64,000 bases of DNA from an uncultured Acidimicrobiia bacterium (GCA_963836205.1 CAWIIV010000020.1:120992-184991), one strand, 5' to 3'; numbered from the stretch's first letter, positions 6,566 to 15,430 are shown. Notes: generated by a model from the letters alone, not told the origin. Program-made: numbers and translations.

Positions 6566-8302
6566 ATGCCCATGGCCAAGGAACGCGCCCCCGGACGTCC
6601 GGTCAGCTTCGGTTCCGACGGCGCCCTGGACCGGCCCGCATCGGAAGCCGACCTCGACTTCGTCCGCCGGCCCATGGTGCGCTGGCTCGACCCCCACCAG
6701 CTCCTCGACACCGCCGGCCGGGTCCTGGCGTCGGGATTCTGGAGCGCCTACACCGACAACCGGGAGCTCCAGGCCATGGTGGCGGCGGGCGTCCACGACC
6801 GGACGGCGGCGTCCGACGTATGGGTCGACTACGTCTCCGACCTGGGCGACGGCTTCAACTCGACGTACACCGTCGCCTACCTGCTGGCCCAGCCCGAACT
6901 CGACCTCGACGGGGAGCACACCCGGCGGGGACGGATCCTGGTCATGGGCGGCGACCAGGTGTACCCCGTCCCCAAGCGCTCGGAGTACGAGAACCGGCTG
7001 CTGGGGCCCTACCGGGCGGCCATGCCCAACCCGTCGGACGAGAAGCACGACCTGTTCGCCATTCCCGGCAGCCACGACTGGTACGACGGCCTCATCAACT
7101 TCACCAACATCTTCTGCCGGCGGCGGGAGCTGGGGGCGCTGCGGACGAGCCAGACCCGGAGCTATTTCGCGGTCGCCCTCCCCCACCGCTGGTGGCTGTG
7201 GGGCATCGACCTCCAGTTCGGGGACTTCATCGACGAGGCCCAGGTCCGCTACTTCAACGACATCGCCAGCGACGCCATGAAGCCGGGCGACCGCATCATC
7301 CTGTGCATGGCCAAGGAGGTCGACAGCGGGCCCAAGAGCGCCGAGGTCTGCTCCGACCGCGACGTCCGGTACCTGGAGCGGGAGGTGGTCGGGCCCGCCG
7401 GCGGCCGGATCGAGGTGTTCCTGAAGAGCGGGCGCCACTACTACAGCCGCTACGAGGAGGAGGACGGCCGCCAGCTCATCACCGCCGGCGGCGGGGGGTC
7501 CTTCCTCCACCCCACCCACCAGCTCCCGGAAGGCTCCAGCCCCCACGGCAAGCTCAAGACGAACTACCGGAAGCAGGCGGTCTATCCCACCGAGACGGTG
7601 TCGAAGGGGCTGCGCAAGCGGGTCTTCCTGCTGCCCGCCTACAACCTCCCCCTGGCCGCGGTGCTGGGGATGGTCCACGTGCTGCTGGCCTTCCTCCTGC
7701 GGCTGCACCTGGAGGACCAGTACCTCACGCTCGGGGTCGCCGACCTGTGGCACGCCCTGTGGGAGACGCCGGCCGCCTTCCTGCTGGTCTTCCTCCTCAT
7801 CACCAGCATCGGAGCCATGGTGTTGCTGGCCCACGACGCCGCCGGCTGGCCCCGATTGGCCCTGGGGCTCGTCCACTCCACCCTCCAGGTGGGCGGGCTG
7901 GCCTTCGTCTATCTGGTGGCGTCGCACGGGGCGGCCACGCTGGGGGCCTCGGGCGGGGTGGTGTCGCTCCTCGTCTTCCTCGTCCTCGTGTACCTGATCG
8001 GAGGGATCGGGGGGGTGCTGGGGATCGCGGCCTACTTCTGGGCCACAAACATCCTCGGCTACCACGGCAACGAGGTCTATGCCCCCCTCCACCACGAGGA
8101 CCTCAAGAACTTCCTCCGCCTCCACTTCGAGGCCGACGGCGGTCTGACCATCTACCCCATCGGCATCGACCGGGTCGGCCGCCACTGGAAGCTCAACCCC
8201 GAGGGGCCGGCCGACTCGCCGTGGTTCGTGCCCGACGGCCACAATCCTCCGCGACCCCACCTCATCGAGCCGCCGATCCGGATCAAGGGCGGTCCCGGCT
8301 GA
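6566..8302 (+). CDS. Calcineurin-like metallophosphoesterase with C-terminal TM helices
   Basis: SDLGDG, GGDQVYP, PGSHDWYDG, GGGGSFLHPTH; hydrophobic C-terminal segments. Confidence 0.8.
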   Translation: MPMAKERAPGRPVSFGSDGALDRPASEADLDFVRRPMVRWLDPHQLLDTAGRVLASGFWSAYTDNRELQAMVAAGVHDRTAASDVWVDYVSDLGDGFNSTYTVAYLLAQPELDLDGEHTRRGRILVMGGDQVYPVPKRSEYENRLLGPYRAAMPNPSDEKHDLFAIPGSHDWYDGLINFTNIFCRRRELGALRTSQTRSYFAVALPHRWWLWGIDLQFGDFIDEAQVRYFNDIASDAMKPGDRIILCMAKEVDSGPKSAEVCSDRDVRYLEREVVGPAGGRIEVFLKSGRHYYSRYEEEDGRQLITAGGGGSFLHPTHQLPEGSSPHGKLKTNYRKQAVYPTETVSKGLRKRVFLLPAYNLPLAAVLGMVHVLLAFLLRLHLEDQYLTLGVADLWHALWETPAAFLLVFLLITSIGAMVLLAHDAAGWPRLALGLVHSTLQVGGLAFVYLVASHGAATLGASGGVVSLLVFLVLVYLIGGIGGVLGIAAYFWATNILGYHGNEVYAPLHHEDLKNFLRLHFEADGGLTIYPIGIDRVGRHWKLNPEGPADSPWFVPDGHNPPRPHLIEPPIRIKGGPG

Positions 8303-8306
8303 CGCG

Positions 8307-8477
8307 TCAGATGGCGATGTGGACGTTGAACAGGACCAGGGGCCACACGAGGACCGCCAGAAGCGCGGAGAGGACGCCCGACAGGCTGTCGAGGTGATCG
8401 AGGAAGCCCTTGTTGGCCGCGACCACCAGCCCGATGACGATCCAGACGACGAACCCGAGGCTGACCGGTCTACGCAT
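8307..8477 (-). CDS. Small two-TM membrane protein (56 aa, not in ORF track)
   Basis: MRRPVSLGFVVWIVIGLVVAANKGFLDHLDSLSGVLSALLAVLVWPLVLFNVHIAI; start overlaps the upstream stop. Confidence 0.75.
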   Translation of the reverse strand: MRRPVSLGFVVWIVIGLVVAANKGFLDHLDSLSGVLSALLAVLVWPLVLFNVHIAI

Positions 8478-8622
8478 GGGTCTGCCCCTCGGCCGCGAGC
8501 CCGGGGTGGACCGGGCCCTGGACGGGCGGCCGCTCGACGAGGCGATCGAGCCACGTGGCGACCCAGAGGAAGAGGACCAGCCCGGCCAACACCGCCGGCG
8601 GGGTCCAGAGGCTGAGGTTCAT
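8470..8622 (-). CDS. Small single-TM protein (50 aa)
   Basis: MNLSLWTPPAVLAGLVLFLWVATWLDRLVE...; ATGA-coupled to the upstream ORF. Confidence 0.6.
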   Translation of the reverse strand: MNLSLWTPPAVLAGLVLFLWVATWLDRLVERPPVQGPVHPGLAAEGQTHA

Positions 8623-8843
8623 CGGGAGGCCCCGGTCGACGCTCGGCGGTGGCGACGGCGGCCGCGGCCGCTGGCGGGACGGGTGCTCGGTTCCGACTCG
8701 ATGCCGGCGGGGGCGGCGGTGGTGTCGCGCTCGACAGCCTGACCGTCGGCAAGGACGATGTCGCTCGCCCGCGCCGCCGTCACCCGCAGGGCGACGTTGG
8801 ACTGGAGGGGACGGGACGGGAGCGCGAAGGCTCGGTGGGGCAT
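8619..8843 (-). CDS. Small hypothetical protein (74 aa)
   Basis: GGAGG 4 nt before ATG; stop forms an ATGA overlap with the next ORF. Confidence 0.45.
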   Translation of the reverse strand: MPHRAFALPSRPLQSNVALRVTAARASDIVLADGQAVERDTTAAPAGIESEPSTRPASGRGRRRHRRASTGASR

Positions 8844-8850
8844 GGGACCT

Positions 8851-8964
8851 CCCTGGTGACGAACGCACTTGACTGCGTTACCAGGGTCCGGAGCAACGCT
8901 CCCGGGAGGGTGCCGACGGTGGCCGGCAGAGTCCGACACGGTGCGGGGACTCACTCCGTGTCGG
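8851..8964 (-). promoter_or_regulatory. Structured 5' leader with three hairpins, the last overlapping the SD
   Basis: Inverted repeats CCGACACGG/CCGTGTCGG, CCGGAGC/GCTCC-CGG and CCCTGGT..AACGCA/TGCGTT.ACCAGGG. Confidence 0.4.
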
Positions 8965-9924
8965 GCCTGACGATACACCCCTCGCCGGCGCGCGGTCGTC
9001 TCTTGGACTCATCCAGTTGCTGGCCTTCGGCTTCTTGGCCGACGGCGGCGTAGCGATGGTGGTGGTCGGGCCGGATCGGAGCGACGGCGACGGCGATCGC
9101 CGCTCGGGTCGTCGGTACCGTCGATCGTGGCGACGGCAGATCTCCCTCGCGAGGCGAGCGCCATGACAAGGACCGCCGCCGTCCACCAGCAGTATGGACG
9201 GCGGCCGACGGGCCGATTCGGCGGCGGCCGGGCGCGGACACCGCTGACCCCGTACGGGGCTTTCCGAGGGACCGGCCGATGACGGGGTCAGGATTCAAGT
9301 CGACGGAATGACGGACGTGGCCGCGGCACGCGGTGGAGGGAGGCATGGCCCCCCTGGGCGGCCGCCATATCGGCTGTCTGGGCGAACTGTCGGTTCGGTC
9401 AGCGGCCATGGGCCGCTCGACGTGTACCAGCGAGGGCTCCAGCCACGGTCAGGCCTCGCCCGGATCCTGGGCCTCGACTGCCCGCATGAGGCCTGTCGGA
9501 GTGTCGGCGGCGAACGGGTTCCGCCCTGACGGGACCTCGAGCGCGCCTGGCCGAGCGCTGCGGGTCCTCGGAGTGCCCCGCTGTGGGTGGCGTTGGTGCC
9601 TGCCCGGCGGCTGCAGGCGCTGCTGGTACCGGCCGAGGCGCTGCTCGGAGAGGTTGTCGCTTGCCCAGGGTCACGAGGCGACTGTGGTCAGGAATCCGTC
9701 CTGAGAGGACGACGAGGTGATAGCCGGGGGCGGCCGGGTCGAGACCTCCCGTACAGGAGCGGTGTTTGGGGCGTCGGCCAATGCAGGCTCGGGCTCGAAG
9801 GGCTCCCGCGCGGATCAGCAAGAACCGTTCCTACGGATTCGAGCGCCGCCCTCCGCCTTGGAGGCGCTGGTCTTGGCCAGGGTCCAACGGCCTAGCTTAG
9901 GCTGCGGACATCGGGGACGAGGAG

Positions 9925-11466
9925 GTGACACCCGCCGTGGAGATCTACCAGCTTGAGCAGGTCTTCAAGTTGTCGGGCGTGCCGGATCTCACCTTCGTCG
10001 AGCCGGTCGAGTTCACTCGTCTCGTTGTGGCGCTCCGGACACCTGGCCGGGGCGTCGTCATCGAAGGACCATCGGGCATCGGCAAGACAAGCGCCGTCAC
10101 GAAAGCGCTCGACAGGATCAGTCCCAACTCCGAACAATTGGCACTCCGTCTCTCGGCGCGAAAGCTCGACGACCGCGAGTTGATCGCCGAGCTCCCAGGC
10201 ATGGGCGCCGCGGGTCTAGTCGTTATCGATGACTTCCACCGACTGGACTCAGCGGTCAGACTCTCAATTGCCGACCACTTGAAGGTTCTTGCGGACGAGG
10301 AACGCACCGACACGAAGATCGTCGTGATCGGAATCAACCAAGCTGGTGAATCGCTTCTTTCGTTCGCTCCGGATCTTAGCGGCCGTATCGAGGTAATCAA
10401 GTTCGGAGTTAACCCTGATGACCGAGTGGAACAACTAGTCGAGCTGGGCAGCAAAGCGCTTAATATCGAGATTCCGATCGGACACGAAATAGTGCGGGCC
10501 GCTGATGGCAGCTTCAACATTGCCCAAATGCTCTGCCACGACGCGTGCTTGACTGCCGATATAACCGCGACTATGTCCGAAGGCGTTTCCTTGGGCGTCT
10601 CGTACGAATTGGTGAAGGAACGCGTTCTAGACCGTCTCGCGGGATCCTTCTACAAGCGAGCCGAGGTCTTTGCGAAGGGAAAGAAGCTCAGGAGGGAAGG
10701 TCGTGCGCCATATCTCCAAATCCTTCGTTGGTTGGCAATGAGCGATGAGTGGACCATCGACCTCGACCGGGAGATATCAAAGAACCCAACGCTGCGCGGC
10801 AGTGTCAGCCAAGTGGTCGAGAAGGGTCACCTCGCGAACCATCTTGACGAACACGCGAATCTGCTTGCCGACTTACTCCACTACGACACTGGTGCCCGAG
10901 TACTCGCCGTCGAAGATCCGAAGTTCTTTTTCTTCATCAAGAATCTTGCTTGGAACAGGTTCGCCGAGCGTATTGGCTACTTTGACGTGTCGTTCTCGTC
11001 TCGCTATGACTTCGCCCTGTCCTTCTCGGGAAGTGATCGCGATATTGCCCAAGCCCTATTCGACGCTCTGTCCGAGCTTGAGTACGAGGTCTTCTACGAC
11101 AAAAACGAGCAGGACCGAATACTCGCGGAGAACGTCGAGGAGTACCTGGCGCCGATATATAAGAGCGAGGCGAGCTACGTGATTGCAATCCTGGGACCTG
11201 ATTATCCGAAACGCATTTGGACGAAATTCGAGTCCGAGCAGTTTAAGAAGCGTTTCGGTGAACATGCCGTTATTCCGGTCTGGTTCGCGGGACAGGACTA
11301 TGCCGTGTTTGACATTTCGCGCGAGGTCGGAGGGGAGACTATCGATCGTGGCGAGCCCATCGAAACGCAGATCGAGGCGATCGCTGAGCGGCTCGCGAAA
11401 AAGCTTCGAGCGCACCGCATTGCGGGCGACGAGGGTCTGGACGCCGAGCCGGTAGTCTTGTCTTGA
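9925..11466 (+). CDS. P-loop (STAND-like) NTPase with C-terminal TIR domain; candidate defence protein (start possibly GTG 9937)
   Basis: Walker A GPSGIGKT, Walker B VVIDDFH; TIR YDFALSFSGSDR...VFYD...WTKFE; visibly more A/T-rich than flanks. Confidence 0.85.
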   Translation: MTPAVEIYQLEQVFKLSGVPDLTFVEPVEFTRLVVALRTPGRGVVIEGPSGIGKTSAVTKALDRISPNSEQLALRLSARKLDDRELIAELPGMGAAGLVVIDDFHRLDSAVRLSIADHLKVLADEERTDTKIVVIGINQAGESLLSFAPDLSGRIEVIKFGVNPDDRVEQLVELGSKALNIEIPIGHEIVRAADGSFNIAQMLCHDACLTADITATMSEGVSLGVSYELVKERVLDRLAGSFYKRAEVFAKGKKLRREGRAPYLQILRWLAMSDEWTIDLDREISKNPTLRGSVSQVVEKGHLANHLDEHANLLADLLHYDTGARVLAVEDPKFFFFIKNLAWNRFAERIGYFDVSFSSRYDFALSFSGSDRDIAQALFDALSELEYEVFYDKNEQDRILAENVEEYLAPIYKSEASYVIAILGPDYPKRIWTKFESEQFKKRFGEHAVIPVWFAGQDYAVFDISREVGGETIDRGEPIETQIEAIAERLAKKLRAHRIAGDEGLDAEPVVLS

Positions 11467-11770
11467 GAAGAAGCGGAACTCGTCACTGACTCCGAGAAGC
11501 GGCGACGGGTGTCCTGATAAACGTGTGATCACGTGTTCCTTCGTAGACCGCGCATCGACACGATTGGCCCAGACAATGAGAAGGCGCCCCATTGCAAAGA
11601 GGATCCGCTTGGGGGGCGGCGAGGCTCGCCGATTTGCGCTCGGCGGTTGCCGCCACGGACCTCGTCGATTGGGGCCGAGATCGGCACAAGCGGCGCTCAA
11701 ACCTCACACCCAAAATGCCTTGCTGCTGATACTGGCGTATTCCACTGGCCCACATTTTCACCCCATCGAC

Positions 11771-11799
11771 TTGACAACCGAACACATGTTCGATAACAT
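11771..11799 (+). promoter_or_regulatory. Housekeeping-type promoter with a LexA (SOS) box in the spacer
   Basis: TTGACA-17 bp-TAACAT; CGAAC-ACAT-GTTCG at 11779-11792; ATG 6 nt after the -10 (leaderless). Confidence 0.8.
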
Positions 11800-11805
11800 G
11801 AGGGT

Positions 11806-12978
11806 ATGTGGGAAGGGCGGACAGGGGGTCGGCTGGCAGAGGTTGTGACGATGCTGCGCGAGATGGTGTCGGGCTTCGAGCCGGCAGCGCTCGACGGGCC
11901 GGCGGCGGTGGAGGCGTTGGGGCTGTTCGGCGAGGTCGAGCGGCTGGGGGCGGCGGGGGTGGCGCTGGCCGGGGGGCGGGTGGAGGCGACCCGGGCCTGG
12001 CAGGGCTCGGGGACGCGTTCGGCGGCGCATTTCGTGGCCTCCCGCTGGGGGTCGTCGCTGCGCTCGGCGGTGGTGGCGTTGGAGACGGCCCGCCGTCTGG
12101 AGTCGCTGCCGGCGACGGAGGAGGCCCTTCGTTCGGGGAGGCTGTCCCTGGCCCAGGCGAACGAGGTCGCCTCGGTGGCCGGGGATCGGCCCGAGCGCGA
12201 GGCCGAGCTGGTGGCGGCGGCCGGTTCGGAAACCCTGCCGGCGTTGCAGGAGCGGTGCCGGGCGGTGCGGGCCGAGGGATCGGCCGCCTCCGAGGGCTAC
12301 CGACGAATCCATCAGCACCGCTACCTGCGGCACTGGAGCGACGAGGAGGGGGCGTTTCGCCTGGAAGCCCGGCTCTGTCCCGACGCGGGGGCCAAGCTGC
12401 TGGCCGCGCTGGGGGCCCACCAGCGACGGATCTTCGCCACCGCCCGGGGCGAGGGCCGGCGGGAGCCCTACGAGGCCTACGCGGCCGACGTCCTGGTGGC
12501 GATGGCCTGCGGTGGTGGAGGCGGGGCGAAGGGACCGGTACCGGTCGTCCACGTCCGGGTCGATCACGCGGCCCTGGTCCGGGGACGGGTCGAGGAGGGC
12601 GAGGTGTGCGACATCCCGGGGGTGGGGCCGATCCCGGTGGCCAGCGCCCGGGCCCTGGCCACCGACGGCATCCTCAAGGTGCTGGTGACCAAGGGCGTCG
12701 ACGTGGTGGCGGTGGCCCACGGGGGACGGACCGTCCCCGCCCACGTGCGCTCGGCCCTGGAGACGAGAGATCCGAAGTGCGTGGTCCCCGGCTGCGACGT
12801 ACGCCAGCGCCTGGAGATCGACCACCTCGTCTCCTTCGCCCAGGGCGGTCCCACCACGCTGGAGAACCTGGCCCGGCTCTGCCACCGCCACCACGCCCTC
12901 AAGACCCACCAGGGCTGGGTCCTGGGTGGCCGCCCCGGAGCATGGACATGGGACCCACCACCGGAGATGCCACCGTGA
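11806..12978 (+). CDS. DUF222/HNH endonuclease (13E12-repeat-like)
   Basis: RDPKCVVPGC...LEIDHLVSFAQGGPTTLENLARLCHRHHALKT. Confidence 0.9.
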   Translation: MWEGRTGGRLAEVVTMLREMVSGFEPAALDGPAAVEALGLFGEVERLGAAGVALAGGRVEATRAWQGSGTRSAAHFVASRWGSSLRSAVVALETARRLESLPATEEALRSGRLSLAQANEVASVAGDRPEREAELVAAAGSETLPALQERCRAVRAEGSAASEGYRRIHQHRYLRHWSDEEGAFRLEARLCPDAGAKLLAALGAHQRRIFATARGEGRREPYEAYAADVLVAMACGGGGGAKGPVPVVHVRVDHAALVRGRVEEGEVCDIPGVGPIPVASARALATDGILKVLVTKGVDVVAVAHGGRTVPAHVRSALETRDPKCVVPGCDVRQRLEIDHLVSFAQGGPTTLENLARLCHRHHALKTHQGWVLGGRPGAWTWDPPPEMPP

Positions 12979-13265
12979 GGTGCGGGGTGAGGGCTGGCCG
13001 GAACGCCCGCCGACACGCGGCGTCATGCCTGGGCCGACGCGCGAAGTCTTGAGCCCGCGCACAGGGGCCGCGGCCCCTGGGGTTTGGCGGGCCGCGGTCG
13101 CCCCCCGGCGGCGCCGGCTCGTCGGACCGGGCCGGATGGAGCGGCCGGTCGAGTCGCGAAACCGACCTCGCGCGGAATCGGCCGGCGAAACCACCAATCG
13201 GGGGGTGGGCGGCGTTGGAGTTGGCGTGGTTGGGCATGCTGCATCCACGAGGCCGGTGTCGGCCG

Positions 13266-13574
13266 ATGTCGGAGGAGGAGGTTCGGGTGACGGAGGATGG
13301 AGACCTGTCGAGCAAGGTGAAGGGGCTGGTGGCGAAGGCCAAGAACGCCATCAGCGGGGGCGACGACGACGGGGGCACGGGGAGCGGCGATTCGGCCGGG
13401 CCGGTGGCGAAGGTGAAGGCGGCATTGTCGAAGGCCACCGAGGCGGTCACCGGGCTGGTCAAGAAGGACGACGACGGCGCCGGCGCGACCGACGCCCACG
13501 AGGAGCCCACCGAGAACGCCCTCAAGATGAAGGCGGCGGTGAAGGAGGCCCGCAAGGCCAAGGACGACGACTGA
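13266..13574 (+). CDS. Small hydrophilic Lys/Asp/Ala-rich protein
   Basis: MSEEEVRVTEDGDLSSKVKGLVAKAK...; good coding bias. Confidence 0.6.
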   Translation: MSEEEVRVTEDGDLSSKVKGLVAKAKNAISGGDDDGGTGSGDSAGPVAKVKAALSKATEAVTGLVKKDDDGAGATDAHEEPTENALKMKAAVKEARKAKDDD

Positions 13575-13613: not shown

Positions 13614-14400
13614 ATGACGCTCACAGTGGGACACGGCCCGTTCGGGCAACATCCGGCCGGGATCTTCAACTTCGAGCCGCCGGAGCACGTCACGTTCGTC
13701 GAGCCCGTGCCCCGGCGGAATCCGGGGCCACAAGGACGGCGTCACCCTCGTCAACAGCGAGCGGGCCATGCTCGTCCACCAGAGTCGCCGACTTCCCTAC
13801 TACGCCTTCCCCCGGGAGGACGTCTCCATCGGTGGCGCGCCCGAGCCCCTGGTGGAGGGCTACGTCACGGTCCCGTGGGGCGATGTCGACGAGTGGTTCG
13901 AGGAGGACGAGAAGGTCAGCGTCCACCCCCGCGACCCCTACCACCGCATCGACACCTTCACCACGTCCCGGCAGGTGAGGGTGTCGCTCGACGGGCACGT
14001 CCTGGCCGAGTCCACCGGCGCCAAGGCCCTGTTCGAGACCGGCCTCCCCGTCCGCTACTACCTGCCGTTCCGCGACGTGCGGCTCGAACACCTGGTGGCC
14101 AGCGACACCGTCACCCAGTGCGCCTACAAGGGCACCGCCATCCACTGGTCGGCCCGGTTCGGCGACCCGACCCACTCCAGCCCCGCCCATCTCGACCCTG
14201 CCCATGTCGACCCTGCCCATGTCGACCCTGCCCATGTCGACATCGCCTGGACCTACGAGGGCGACGACGTCCAGCGGGATGCAGAGGCGGTGCGGGGCCG
14301 CATCTGCTTCTACAACGAGCGCACCGACGTCGAGGTCGACGGCCTCAGCCAGGCCCAGCCCCAGACCCCGTGGTCACGGAGCGCCATCGAGGAGCTCTAG
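13614..14400 (+). CDS. Tandem DUF427 domain protein; frameshift near 13719
   Basis: HPRDPYHRID, LFETGLPVRYY, TQCAYKG, ICFYNE; one extra base splits the N-terminus. Confidence 0.85.
14184..14241 (+). repeat. 15-bp in-frame tandem repeat (DPAHV)
   Basis: GACCCTGCCCATGTC x3 plus a partial copy. Confidence 0.9.
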
Positions 14401-14410
14401 GGCCCAGTCG

Positions 14411-15430
14411 TCAGGGCTGCGACTCCGAGACGTCGCCCGTCTGGCCGAGCAGCCAGCTGCACCATTCCTCGAGGCCCTCACCAGTGCGGGCCGACGCCCG
14501 GATGACCCGGGCGGTCGGGTTCACCGCGTGCAGGTTGGCGAGGAACGTGTCGAGGTCGAAGTCGAGGTACGGGAGGAGGTCGATCTTGTTGACCACCACC
14601 ACGTCGGCCGCCCGGAACATCACCGGGTACTTGAGCGGCTTCTCCTCGCCCTCGGTGACGGCGTACACCATCGCCACCGCGTGCTCCCCCACCTTGAACT
14701 CGGCCGGGCACACCAGGTTGCCGACGTTCTCGATCACCAGCAGGTCGATGTCGTCGAGGGGCAGCCGGCGCAGGCCGGAGCGCACCATCACCGCGTCGAG
14801 GTGGCACTCGCCGCCGAAGCCCTTGCTCGTGTTGACCAGGGCGATCTCGGCCCCGTAGCCCTCGAGCTGGTCGGCGTCGATGCTGGTGGCGATGTCGCCC
14901 TCGAGGATGCCGATCCGCACCGTCGGGCTCAAGGCGGCCAGGGTCTTCTTCAACAGCGACGTCTTGCCCGCGCCCGGCGACGACATGAGGTTGACCGCCC
15001 GCACACCCGCCTTGGCCAGCGCCTGCCCGTTCTCGGCCGCCACCCGGTCGTTCTCGCCCAGGATGTCCTCCAGCACCGCCACCCGCGACCGGCCCGTCTC
15101 CGCGTAGCCGCTGTGATCACCGACGTCCCGGTGCTCGCGCGAGTGCCCGTCGGTGTGATCGTGGTCGTGCCCGCCACCGTCGTGGGGATGGTCGTGCCCG
15201 TCGTGGTCGTGCCCGTCGTGGTCGTGCCCGTCGTGGTCGTGCCCGTCGTGGTCGTGCCCGTCGTGGTCGTGCCCGTCGTGGTCGTGCCCGTCGTGGTCGT
15301 GCCCGTCGTGGTCGTGCCCGTCGTGGTCGTGCCTGTCGTGGTCGAGCATAGGGTCGAAGGACCCCAGGGGCGCGTCCTCGTGGTCGTGGTCGTGGGTGGT
15401 GCCGTCCGAATGGCGGTGGAACCGGCCCAT
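14411..15430 (-). CDS. hypB: Nickel-insertion GTPase HypB with His/Asp-rich N-terminus
   Basis: SSPGAGKT, ECHLDA, ENVGNLVCPAEF, EKPLKYP, NKID. Confidence 0.95.
   Translation of the reverse strand: MGRFHRHSDGTTHDHDHEDAPLGSFDPMLDHDRHDHDGHDHDGHDHDGHDHDGHDHDGHDHDGHDHDGHDHDGHDHDGHDHPHDGGGHDHDHTDGHSREHRDVGDHSGYAETGRSRVAVLEDILGENDRVAAENGQALAKAGVRAVNLMSSPGAGKTSLLKKTLAALSPTVRIGILEGDIATSIDADQLEGYGAEIALVNTSKGFGGECHLDAVMVRSGLRRLPLDDIDLLVIENVGNLVCPAEFKVGEHAVAMVYAVTEGEEKPLKYPVMFRAADVVVVNKIDLLPYLDFDLDTFLANLHAVNPTARVIRASARTGEGLEEWCSWLLGQTGDVSESQP
15194..15343 (-). repeat. 15-bp tandem repeat encoding (HDHDG)n
   Basis: GTGCCCGTCGTGGTC, 9 perfect copies plus 1 variant. Confidence 0.95.

Follow-up and report, generated by a model that had tools for sequence, protein, structure and literature searches.

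What does a solitary gene for an ATPase fused to a TIR domain do in a bacterium whose close relatives lack it? The gene lies in a 64,000-nucleotide stretch of DNA (hereafter the window) from an uncultured Acidimicrobiia bacterium (GCA_963836205.1, CAWIIV010000020.1:120992-184991), and a preliminary description had proposed that it encodes a foreign, compact, NLR-like abortive-infection protein with its domains in inverted order. Our analysis places the gene in a widespread family whose members, judging from their sequences, most likely kill or arrest virus-infected cells.

An intact gene in a foreign segment

An uninterrupted open reading frame occupies 9925..11466 on the + strand and would encode 513 amino acids if counted from the GTG at 9925. 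The true start is probably the GTG at 9937, because an AGGAGG hexamer lies 11 nt upstream of it and the database copy of the window protein (P0001) has 509 amino acids. The hexamer also overlaps the GTG at 9925. Residues are numbered throughout according to the 513-amino-acid form.

9937..11466, + strand: ATPase-TIR gene, 509 amino acids from GTG 9937, from the open frame and homologues matched at E=0
9920..9925, + strand: AGGAGG, a ribosome-binding-site-like hexamer read directly from the sequence, 11 nt before GTG 9937

The gene has a GC content of 0.564 and a GC3 of 0.68, compared with GC3 values of 0.89-0.97 for the six genes around it and a GC content of 0.712 for the whole window, which bears out the preliminary observation that its codons are more A/T-rich than those of the flanks. 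Homologues behave in the same way, with the gene lower in GC than its locus at 27 of 27 loci. No ATPase-TIR protein was found in any of 40 related genomes (7 of the same genus, 17 from other genera of the family and 16 of the same order), and only one of 400 other genomes of the phylum carries one at E<=1e-20; these counts take in six genomes flagged as unpublished (G008, G009, G015, G017, G021 and G023). Plasmids do carry the gene, with matches in nine of 72,556 records, eight of these over at least 80% of the length. Among 50,697 phage records there is no full-length copy, and one match covers 21% of the query. Because of its deviant GC3, its absence from relatives, the low GC of homologues at all 27 loci and their carriage on plasmids, the gene is, on sequence evidence, horizontally acquired.

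~9900..11800, no strand: low-GC foreign segment, from a 100-nt GC profile, limits approximate
9548..9836, + strand: decayed DUF222 fragment on the left, interrupted by a frameshift and a stop, from blastn and tblastn
11806..12978, + strand: intact, multi-copy DUF222/HNH gene of the right flank, from Pfam DUF222

The flanks had been called degenerate, which is true of the left side and not of the right. The left fragment matches a DUF222 gene of genome G001 (75% over 124 nt, E 5e-17 by blastn), and the right-flank DUF222/HNH gene is intact, with copies at 92-93% identity elsewhere in the same genome. The idea that the TIR gene split a single DUF222 gene was rejected, as the DUF222 gene on the right is whole and has its own copy of the segment seen in the left fragment. 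Apart from a DUF222-derived direct repeat of 57 nt (9586-9642 and 12072-12128), no convincing flanking direct repeats mark an insertion, and no tRNA is found near the gene within positions 1-30000.

In same-genus genomes the left gene is retained to about position 8300, with partial continuation to 8980 or 9558, and the right side resumes at 13223 or 13431; the stretch in between varies among them. Genome G007 has 746 bp in place of window positions 9558-13223, and thus lacks the stretch that includes the right-flank DUF222/HNH gene. G001 has a DUF222 gene at the corresponding site, and the TIR gene is absent. The locus in the source genome appears to be a variable hotspot of foreign DNA uptake.

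A switch-like ATPase module followed by a TIR domain

The domain structure of the protein was derived from an alignment of 46 full-length homologues, 25-81% identical to the window protein, and from an AlphaFold2 model built with this alignment (mean pLDDT 90.9, pTM 0.86).

10063..10089, + strand: Walker A, EGPSGIGKT; E47, G48, G53 and K54 in 46/46 aligned homologues
10216..10239, + strand: Walker B, LVVIDDFH; D102, D103, F104 and H105 each in 45/46
10372..10404, + strand: DLSGRIEVIKF with conserved R154 (45/46); fold match to RFC/ORC/Cdc6
10411..10689, + strand: helical lid of the AAA+ module, residues 163-255, from model secondary structure; RFC/ORC alignments reach about residue 237
10690..10980, + strand: winged-helix-like region, residues 256-352, from the model; spanned by the Cdc6/Orc1, 2qen, 2fna and Avs5 alignments
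10990..11421, + strand: TIR domain, residues 356-499, from Pfam TIR_2, fold matches and PDB profile matches
11218..11232, + strand: WTKFE with the putative catalytic glutamate E436; in the alignment it pairs with WTNYE of AbTIR and WTEYE of 7uxr

Both Walker motifs are intact, as previously described, and are invariant or nearly so across the 46 sequences, and the helical middle that had been noted resolves in the model into a lid and a winged-helix-like region. Residues 5-237 of the model resemble the AAA+ domains of clamp-loader, ORC and Cdc6 proteins (Z ~14-14.7 over ~205 residues, with RFC at Z ~14.7), and the position of R154 presumably corresponds to box VII, or the arginine finger, of the clamp-loader and Cdc6 AAA+ proteins. 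Further alignments reach into the winged helix, including those to the P. abyssi ATPase 2qen (Z 14.6, 284 residues, model 12-340), SSO1545 (2fna, Z 13.0) and the Cdc6/Orc1 structures 2qby (Z 13.6, model 8-351) and 1w5s (Z 12.8, model 8-353); Cdc6/Orc1 matches overall range from Z 12.8 to 14.5. An Avs5 filament (9nc9_D, Z 12.4, rmsd 4.2, 257 residues, model 8-358) and, for the ATPase module, MalT (8bob, Z 12.2) are equalled or exceeded as fold matches by RFC, ORC and Cdc6 (Z 12.8-14.7). In the model, the first 355 residues thus resemble a bare switch of the Cdc6/ORC/STAND type, made up of NBD, lid and winged helix and carrying no other part.

Pfam yields only generic AAA matches below threshold for the N-terminal half. 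The protein is below the cut-off for all of the NACHT, NB-ARC and nSTAND1-5 models, and nSTAND3 is absent from its Pfam matches at E<=1. The term "inverted NLR" used in the preliminary description is only partly apt: no sensor domain is present, the fold is like that of Cdc6, ORC and clamp loaders, and the nSTAND models that had been suggested as a check failed to recognize the protein, the only match, nSTAND_NTPase5, scoring 14.4 bits where the cut-off is 34.

The C-terminal TIR domain is well supported, with a Pfam TIR_2 score of 33.7 bits (cut-off 28) over residues 363-455. Fold matches of the model include the TIR domains of RUN1 (7rx1, Z 16.4, 139 residues, rmsd 2.9), AbTir (7uxu, Z 16.1, rmsd 2.0, 128 residues), SARM1, MAL and SpbK (9phb_G, Z 12.2, 130 residues), and PDB profile matches were obtained to 7uxr (3.8e-11), AbTIR (8.8e-10) and TcpB (8.3e-7). 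The residues S366 and E436 are present in all 46 aligned sequences, and R372 and W432 each in 42 of the 46. E436 belongs to the WTKFE motif singled out previously, which aligns with WTNYE of AbTIR, whose glutamate we take to be the catalytic residue of that enzyme. TIR domains of the AbTIR/TcpB/7uxr type make cADPR isomers.

Neither TPR nor WD40 repeats were detected in the protein by Pfam, in agreement with the earlier reading, and neither Pfam nor the model reveals repeats or any domain C-terminal of the TIR. Averaged over sequence pairs, identity amounts to 0.46 in the N-terminal lead, 0.43 in the NBD, 0.32 in the lid, 0.37 in the winged helix and 0.35 in the TIR. As far as these alignments indicate, conservation is even along the protein, with no hypervariable segment that would mark a sensor. 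A complex prediction for two copies of residues 1-355 with ATP, run without controls, gave a score of 0.00 and is uninformative in either direction.

Distribution of the family

Of 8000 candidates scored in a word-indexed search, 2197 proteins reach E<=0.001. The top 120 of these are ~410-570 amino acids long and 55-100% identical to the query, and the most specific names among them are "TIR domain-containing protein" and "ATPase". An exhaustive search of representatives gave 3510 matches at E<=0.001, 285 of them at E<=1e-30. ESM Atlas clusters of the window protein carry the automatic names "TIR domain-containing protein" and "nSTAND3 domain-containing NTPase family protein".

In a pattern-limited scan of one-genome-per-species contigs, at least 27 loci encode a relative. 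The hosts of relatives belong to the Actinomycetota, Acidobacteriota, Pseudomonadota, Cyanobacteriota, Bacteroidota, Chloroflexota, Verrucomicrobiota and Planctomycetota and include two archaeal MAGs. Homologues of ~50% identity are spread over many bacterial phyla, these archaeal MAGs and plasmids. A tree was built from the window copy and 17 intact loci, leaving out seven broken loci (L009, L015, L018, L022, L024, L025 and L026) and three cut by contig ends (L021, L023 and L027). The window copy groups with those of Cellulomonas, Georgenia and Streptomyces (support 100/99). The remaining phyla are intermixed, with one tight clade composed of Limnobacter, a Chloroflexota MAG and a Lysobacterales MAG. 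The broken copies, seven of 24 assessable loci, carry a frameshift, stop or truncation and come mainly from MAGs, so that part of them may be assembly errors; their frequency fits what is expected of a costly gene.

The ATPase and winged-helix module (residues ~5-355) recurs among the representative matches in longer proteins. A scan of 48 such relatives found TIR_2 in 45, and the added domains comprise DUF4062, HTH, HsdM methylase, PNP_UDP_1, SIR2_2, metallophosphatase, protein kinase, caspase, HD-CE, a receiver domain, NACHT with HEAT or TPR repeats, and an extra TIR. In domain content, these proteins follow the pattern of an immune chassis on which effectors have been exchanged. Some longer relatives exceed the nSTAND3 or nSTAND5 cut-off, among them P0138 (40.3 bits), P0141 (31.1 bits) and P0198 (31.0 bits) for nSTAND3, whose cut-off is 27.2. 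In 18 of the 48 the best TIR stretch is N-terminal to the ATPase module, so within the clade the TIR can reside on either side of it.

Gene neighborhoods

An all-against-all comparison of 1222 ORFs located within 6 kb of the gene at 27 loci and in the window revealed no family common to more than two of the 28 loci. This supports the preliminary statement that there is no partner gene and, together with the GC3 and the near absence from related genomes, the designation of a foreign single gene.

Neighbors were annotated with Pfam (182 ORFs from 21 loci) and PADLOC (148 ORFs within 4 kb). PADLOC identifies specific defense neighbors within 4 kb at eight of the 21 loci.

L003: adjoining TIR protein and NUDIX
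L006: HerA/mad8-like giant protein
L007: ThsB (274 bits) and PDC-M50A
L008: PDC-S54
L009: CBASS cyclase (411 bits)
L010: ThsB, TIR-SLOG, Fic and PemK
L012: PDC-M50A, TIR-TM and HEPN
L017: type I R-M and RmrA

Genes of mobile elements occur at L003, L004, L013, L016, L020 and L022. Thus, defense or mobile genes are found within 5 kb at 13 of 21 loci, a raw count that makes the enrichment qualitative. Neither kind is present at the other eight (L001, L002, L005, L014, L015, L018, L019 and L025), and the window locus has no such neighbor other than the DUF222/HNH gene. Both plasmid contexts examined are rich in defense genes, one with a CBASS phospholipase, a TIR protein and an integrase beside the homologue and the other with a TIR and caspase pair. 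Several other matches were discarded as generic, namely those of DNA_pol_A at L001 to RTasPolA (34 bits), of the ABC ATPases at L002 and L012 to mad3, AriA and mad8, and of a glycosidase at L019 to a CARF fusion model.

Comparison with named systems

As judged by profile comparisons, the ATPase-TIR protein belongs to no validated named system. PADLOC gives partial matches to PDC-S59 (59.1 bits, E 9.7e-17, profile positions 136-331 of 428, or 196 positions) and to PDC-S66 (30.6 bits, profile positions 147-254 of 282, the TIR part alone), and 42 of the 46 family members show the matches seen in the window protein, PDC-S59 included. The window protein reaches a full-length, member-level match to neither profile. 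A true PDC-S59 member (L043:1492-2814, 441 amino acids) scores 233.7 bits over profile positions 3-404 and aligns to residues 99-349 of the window protein at 22% identity. It likewise is the product of a single gene with a homologous ATPase, lid and winged-helix module, but it lacks a TIR, and the window protein matches only part of the profile. According to the report that introduced them, the PDC sets comprise 145 candidates that its authors describe as untested (bioRxiv 10.1101/2024.01.29.577857).

NCBIfam contains no model that the protein matches near its cut-off. The ORC1 equivalog scores 15.7 bits against a cut-off of 417, and the likeness to ORC1/Cdc6 is thus one of fold only. Cdc6/Orc1, clamp-loader subunits and the archaeal PF01637-type ATPases (2qen and 2fna), the best fold matches for residues 5-350, are housekeeping proteins without a TIR, whereas the window gene is sporadic and foreign. 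The TIR part has its best sequence and fold matches among the AbTir and BtpA-TcpB-type NADases, with which it shares W-x-x-x-E. The latter come from bacterial pathogens, have a coiled coil or another part ahead of the TIR, and are not known to contain an ATPase.

Avs5 (AVAST type 5), an antiviral STAND protein, is comparable in being a single-gene product whose P-loop NTPase core (NBD, lid and winged helix) resembles the fold of the window module, and in carrying an NAD-consuming effector, which is predicted in the present case. In Avs5, however, the effector is SIR2 and is N-terminal, and the C-terminus holds a large repeat sensor; the window protein has a C-terminal TIR and no sensor that we could find. 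Avs5 is a SIR2-nSTAND3-repeat protein whose NTPase is Pfam nSTAND3 (PMC12931631) and which is reported to be activated through filament formation (PMC11897194). The window protein does not have the tripartite Avs/STAND build of N-terminal effector, NTPase and C-terminal repeat sensor, as defined in PMC13581612.

SpbK of Bacillus subtilis resembles the window protein in that one polypeptide combines an N-terminal non-TIR part with a C-terminal TIR of matching fold. It is reported to be a self-association-dependent NADase (PMC12847820) that gives abortive-infection protection and whose N-terminal domain binds the phage portal protein. SpbK has 266 amino acids and an N-terminal domain not described as an ATPase in the sections consulted, whereas the window TIR is preceded by a 355-residue AAA+/winged-helix module. 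SpbK provides a precedent for a C-terminal TIR and, with the 18 relatives in which the TIR is N-terminal, makes the inverted orientation less distinctive.

No description of the family was found in the literature searched. An E. coli TIR survey (PMC11350192) mentions in its text one new AAA-domain system without naming it, and its figures and supplements might describe a related AAA-containing TIR system, which would bear on novelty. The earlier reading is largely sound, and the clear match to a named system that by its account would remove the novelty was not found, although the novelty of an "inverted NLR" is softened by the relatives with the TIR on either side, by SpbK and by the partial PADLOC coverage.

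Proposed mechanism

We consider it likely, without being firmly convinced, that the gene encodes a one-gene abortive-infection protein in which cue- and ATP-dependent oligomerization clusters the TIR domains, completes an NADase site and depletes NAD+. At rest, the AAA+/winged-helix module would keep the protein monomeric or inactive. An infection-linked cue would then cause ATP-bound modules to oligomerize, with R154 of one subunit reaching into the ATP site of its neighbor. The oligomer would place the C-terminal TIRs head-to-tail and thereby complete a composite NADase site around E436, and the resulting consumption of NAD+ would stop the growth of the infected cell. The NADase activity, the oligomerization, the phage trigger and the cell outcome are inferred. 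The reading as a whole draws on the intact catalytic residues, the confident model, the fold matches to oligomerizing AAA+ proteins and the Avs5 filament core, the foreign origin, the lack of a conserved partner, the defense or mobile neighborhoods, the modularity and decay of homologues, and the precedents of SpbK and Avs5. Points on the other side are that proteins that sense phage proteins directly are seldom so well conserved between phyla, that no sensor domain was found, that no Pfam STAND model recognizes the window protein, and that eight of the 21 loci and the window are without a defense or mobile neighbor, the DUF222/HNH gene aside.

Given the even conservation (0.32-0.46), we favor the view that the ATPase/winged-helix module itself reads a conserved cue, such as a nucleic-acid form or a nucleotide, rather than that the cue is a rapidly evolving phage protein. 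If active, the gene would be a compact immune gene of ~500 amino acids that is portable across domains of life, with the path from sensing to NAD+ depletion contained within three small domains. It might also serve as a convenient model for an AAA+/NOD-type switch that controls a TIR enzyme, and would add a defense family that catalogues touch via two candidate profiles only.

More speculatively, the protein could be a pan-prokaryotic, minimal immune protein that has no separate sensor, in which the Cdc6/ORC-like ATPase and winged helix are the receptor and assemble the C-terminal TIR NADase, a possibility to which we give some weight while thinking it doubtful. Foreign DNA, the structure of a replication intermediate or an altered nucleotide pool are candidates for a conserved cue from the invader. 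If true, this would explain how one gene can function after transfer between bacterial phyla and archaea, why ~50% identity is kept across phyla, and why relatives add effector or input domains to the same chassis.

Alternative explanations

It is also possible, though unlikely, that the TIR makes a cyclic ADPR isomer or similar signal that switches on an unlinked effector, as in Thoeris. The TIRs closest in sequence are of the isomer-producing AbTIR/TcpB/7uxr type, ThsB-like TIR genes lie beside homologues at L007, L010 and L012, and the host genome contains eight TIR_2 genes. Nonetheless, no effector gene, of the ThsA type or otherwise, is conserved beside the family, and no match to SIR2_2, a ThsA-type domain, was found in this 88.6%-complete genome. 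The ThsB model scores only 15 bits against the window protein (E 0.0033) and reaches E<=0.001 in five of 46 family members. Moreover, a lone gene that crosses phyla would require a ready-made receptor in every new host.

Quite improbable is a function that is not antiviral, either as a selfish or competitive gene of mobile elements (for example in plasmid exclusion or addiction) or as a stress regulator of NAD+ or dormancy. Such roles would be in keeping with plasmid carriage, with the integrase, transposase or conjugation genes that adjoin the homologue at several loci, and with the eight of 21 loci at which neither defense nor mobile genes are found. On the other side, no antitoxin-like partner is conserved, and the sporadic distribution speaks against a housekeeping role. 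The domain partners of the relatives (SIR2, caspase, HD-CE, an extra TIR and the NACHT/TPR giants) are the usual immune effectors.

Least probable of all is that the host carries the gene as an inert passenger, acquired recently, either not expressed or without function, and heading for decay. Its codon usage is far from that of the host, seven of 24 homologues are broken, it lies next to a decayed DUF222 fragment in a hotspot of variation, and a scan found no sigma-70-like promoter upstream of the start and just a weak match inside the gene (10109-10138). That scan covered a single type of promoter, however, and for an actinobacterium of high GC it counts for little; moreover, the 509-codon frame is intact, with all conserved residues present and a strong RBS-like hexamer before the start.

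A variable hotspot around the foreign ATPase-TIR gene

The region at approximately 8300-13430 of the window is a variable hotspot, with content that is unlike in every same-genus genome compared. It lies between a conserved 578-aa gene and a DUF427 gene, and the features in and beside it are as follows.

6566-8302, conserved 578-aa gene (left border), without a Pfam match at 1e-5
9548-9836, decayed fragment from a DUF222/HNH copy
9937-11466 (+), foreign ATPase-TIR gene
11806-12978, DUF222/HNH gene
13768-14400, DUF427 gene (right border)
14411-15430 (-), HypB homologue with a long N-terminal His/Asp-rich repeat containing DHDGH runs

The intact DUF222/HNH gene is multi-copy within the source genome (G000), with copies of 92-93% DNA identity on contig C23 and at two places on C6, and another of 75% identity on C22. 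Because this gene lies to the right of the TIR gene and the remnant of another copy to its left, the foreign gene is flanked by two copies of a repeated element.

Relatives of the ATPase-TIR protein

Frameshifts, in-frame stops or truncations were found in 7 of the 24 assessable homologous loci (L009, L015, L018, L022, L024, L025 and L026), and in L026 only the last 95 residues of the homologue remain. Three copies, from Limnobacter (L008), Chloroflexota (L011) and Lysobacterales (L013) MAGs, form a single clade with support of 100/100 and branch lengths of 0.08-0.22, reflecting either very recent cross-phylum transfer or else mis-binned contigs.

When ORFs within 6 kb were compared all-against-all, only four neighbour families were common to two loci. 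One of these is the pairing of a ThsB-like TIR gene with a gene of the PADLOC candidate system PDC-M50A, which adjoins the homologue in a Flavobacterium (L007:3948-5185) and in a Halobacteriota MAG (L012:249-1104).

Other TIR and ATPase genes in the source genome

G000 (4.05 Mb) is unusually TIR-rich. Eight open frames, 257-1011 aa long, exceed the Pfam threshold for TIR_2 (C14, C12 at two places, C6, C11, C7, C8 and the window), and there is an additional split match at C11:533-872. No Pfam match to SIR2_2 was found in this genome. A second ATPase (C3:11531-12682; L044:1405-2670), of the PADLOC candidate type PDC-S59 (91.8 bits, 422 aa), lacks a TIR domain and adjoins an asparaginase gene. 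This ATPase and the window protein have in common an N-terminal VF..G.P..T motif and the Walker B sequence IDDFH.
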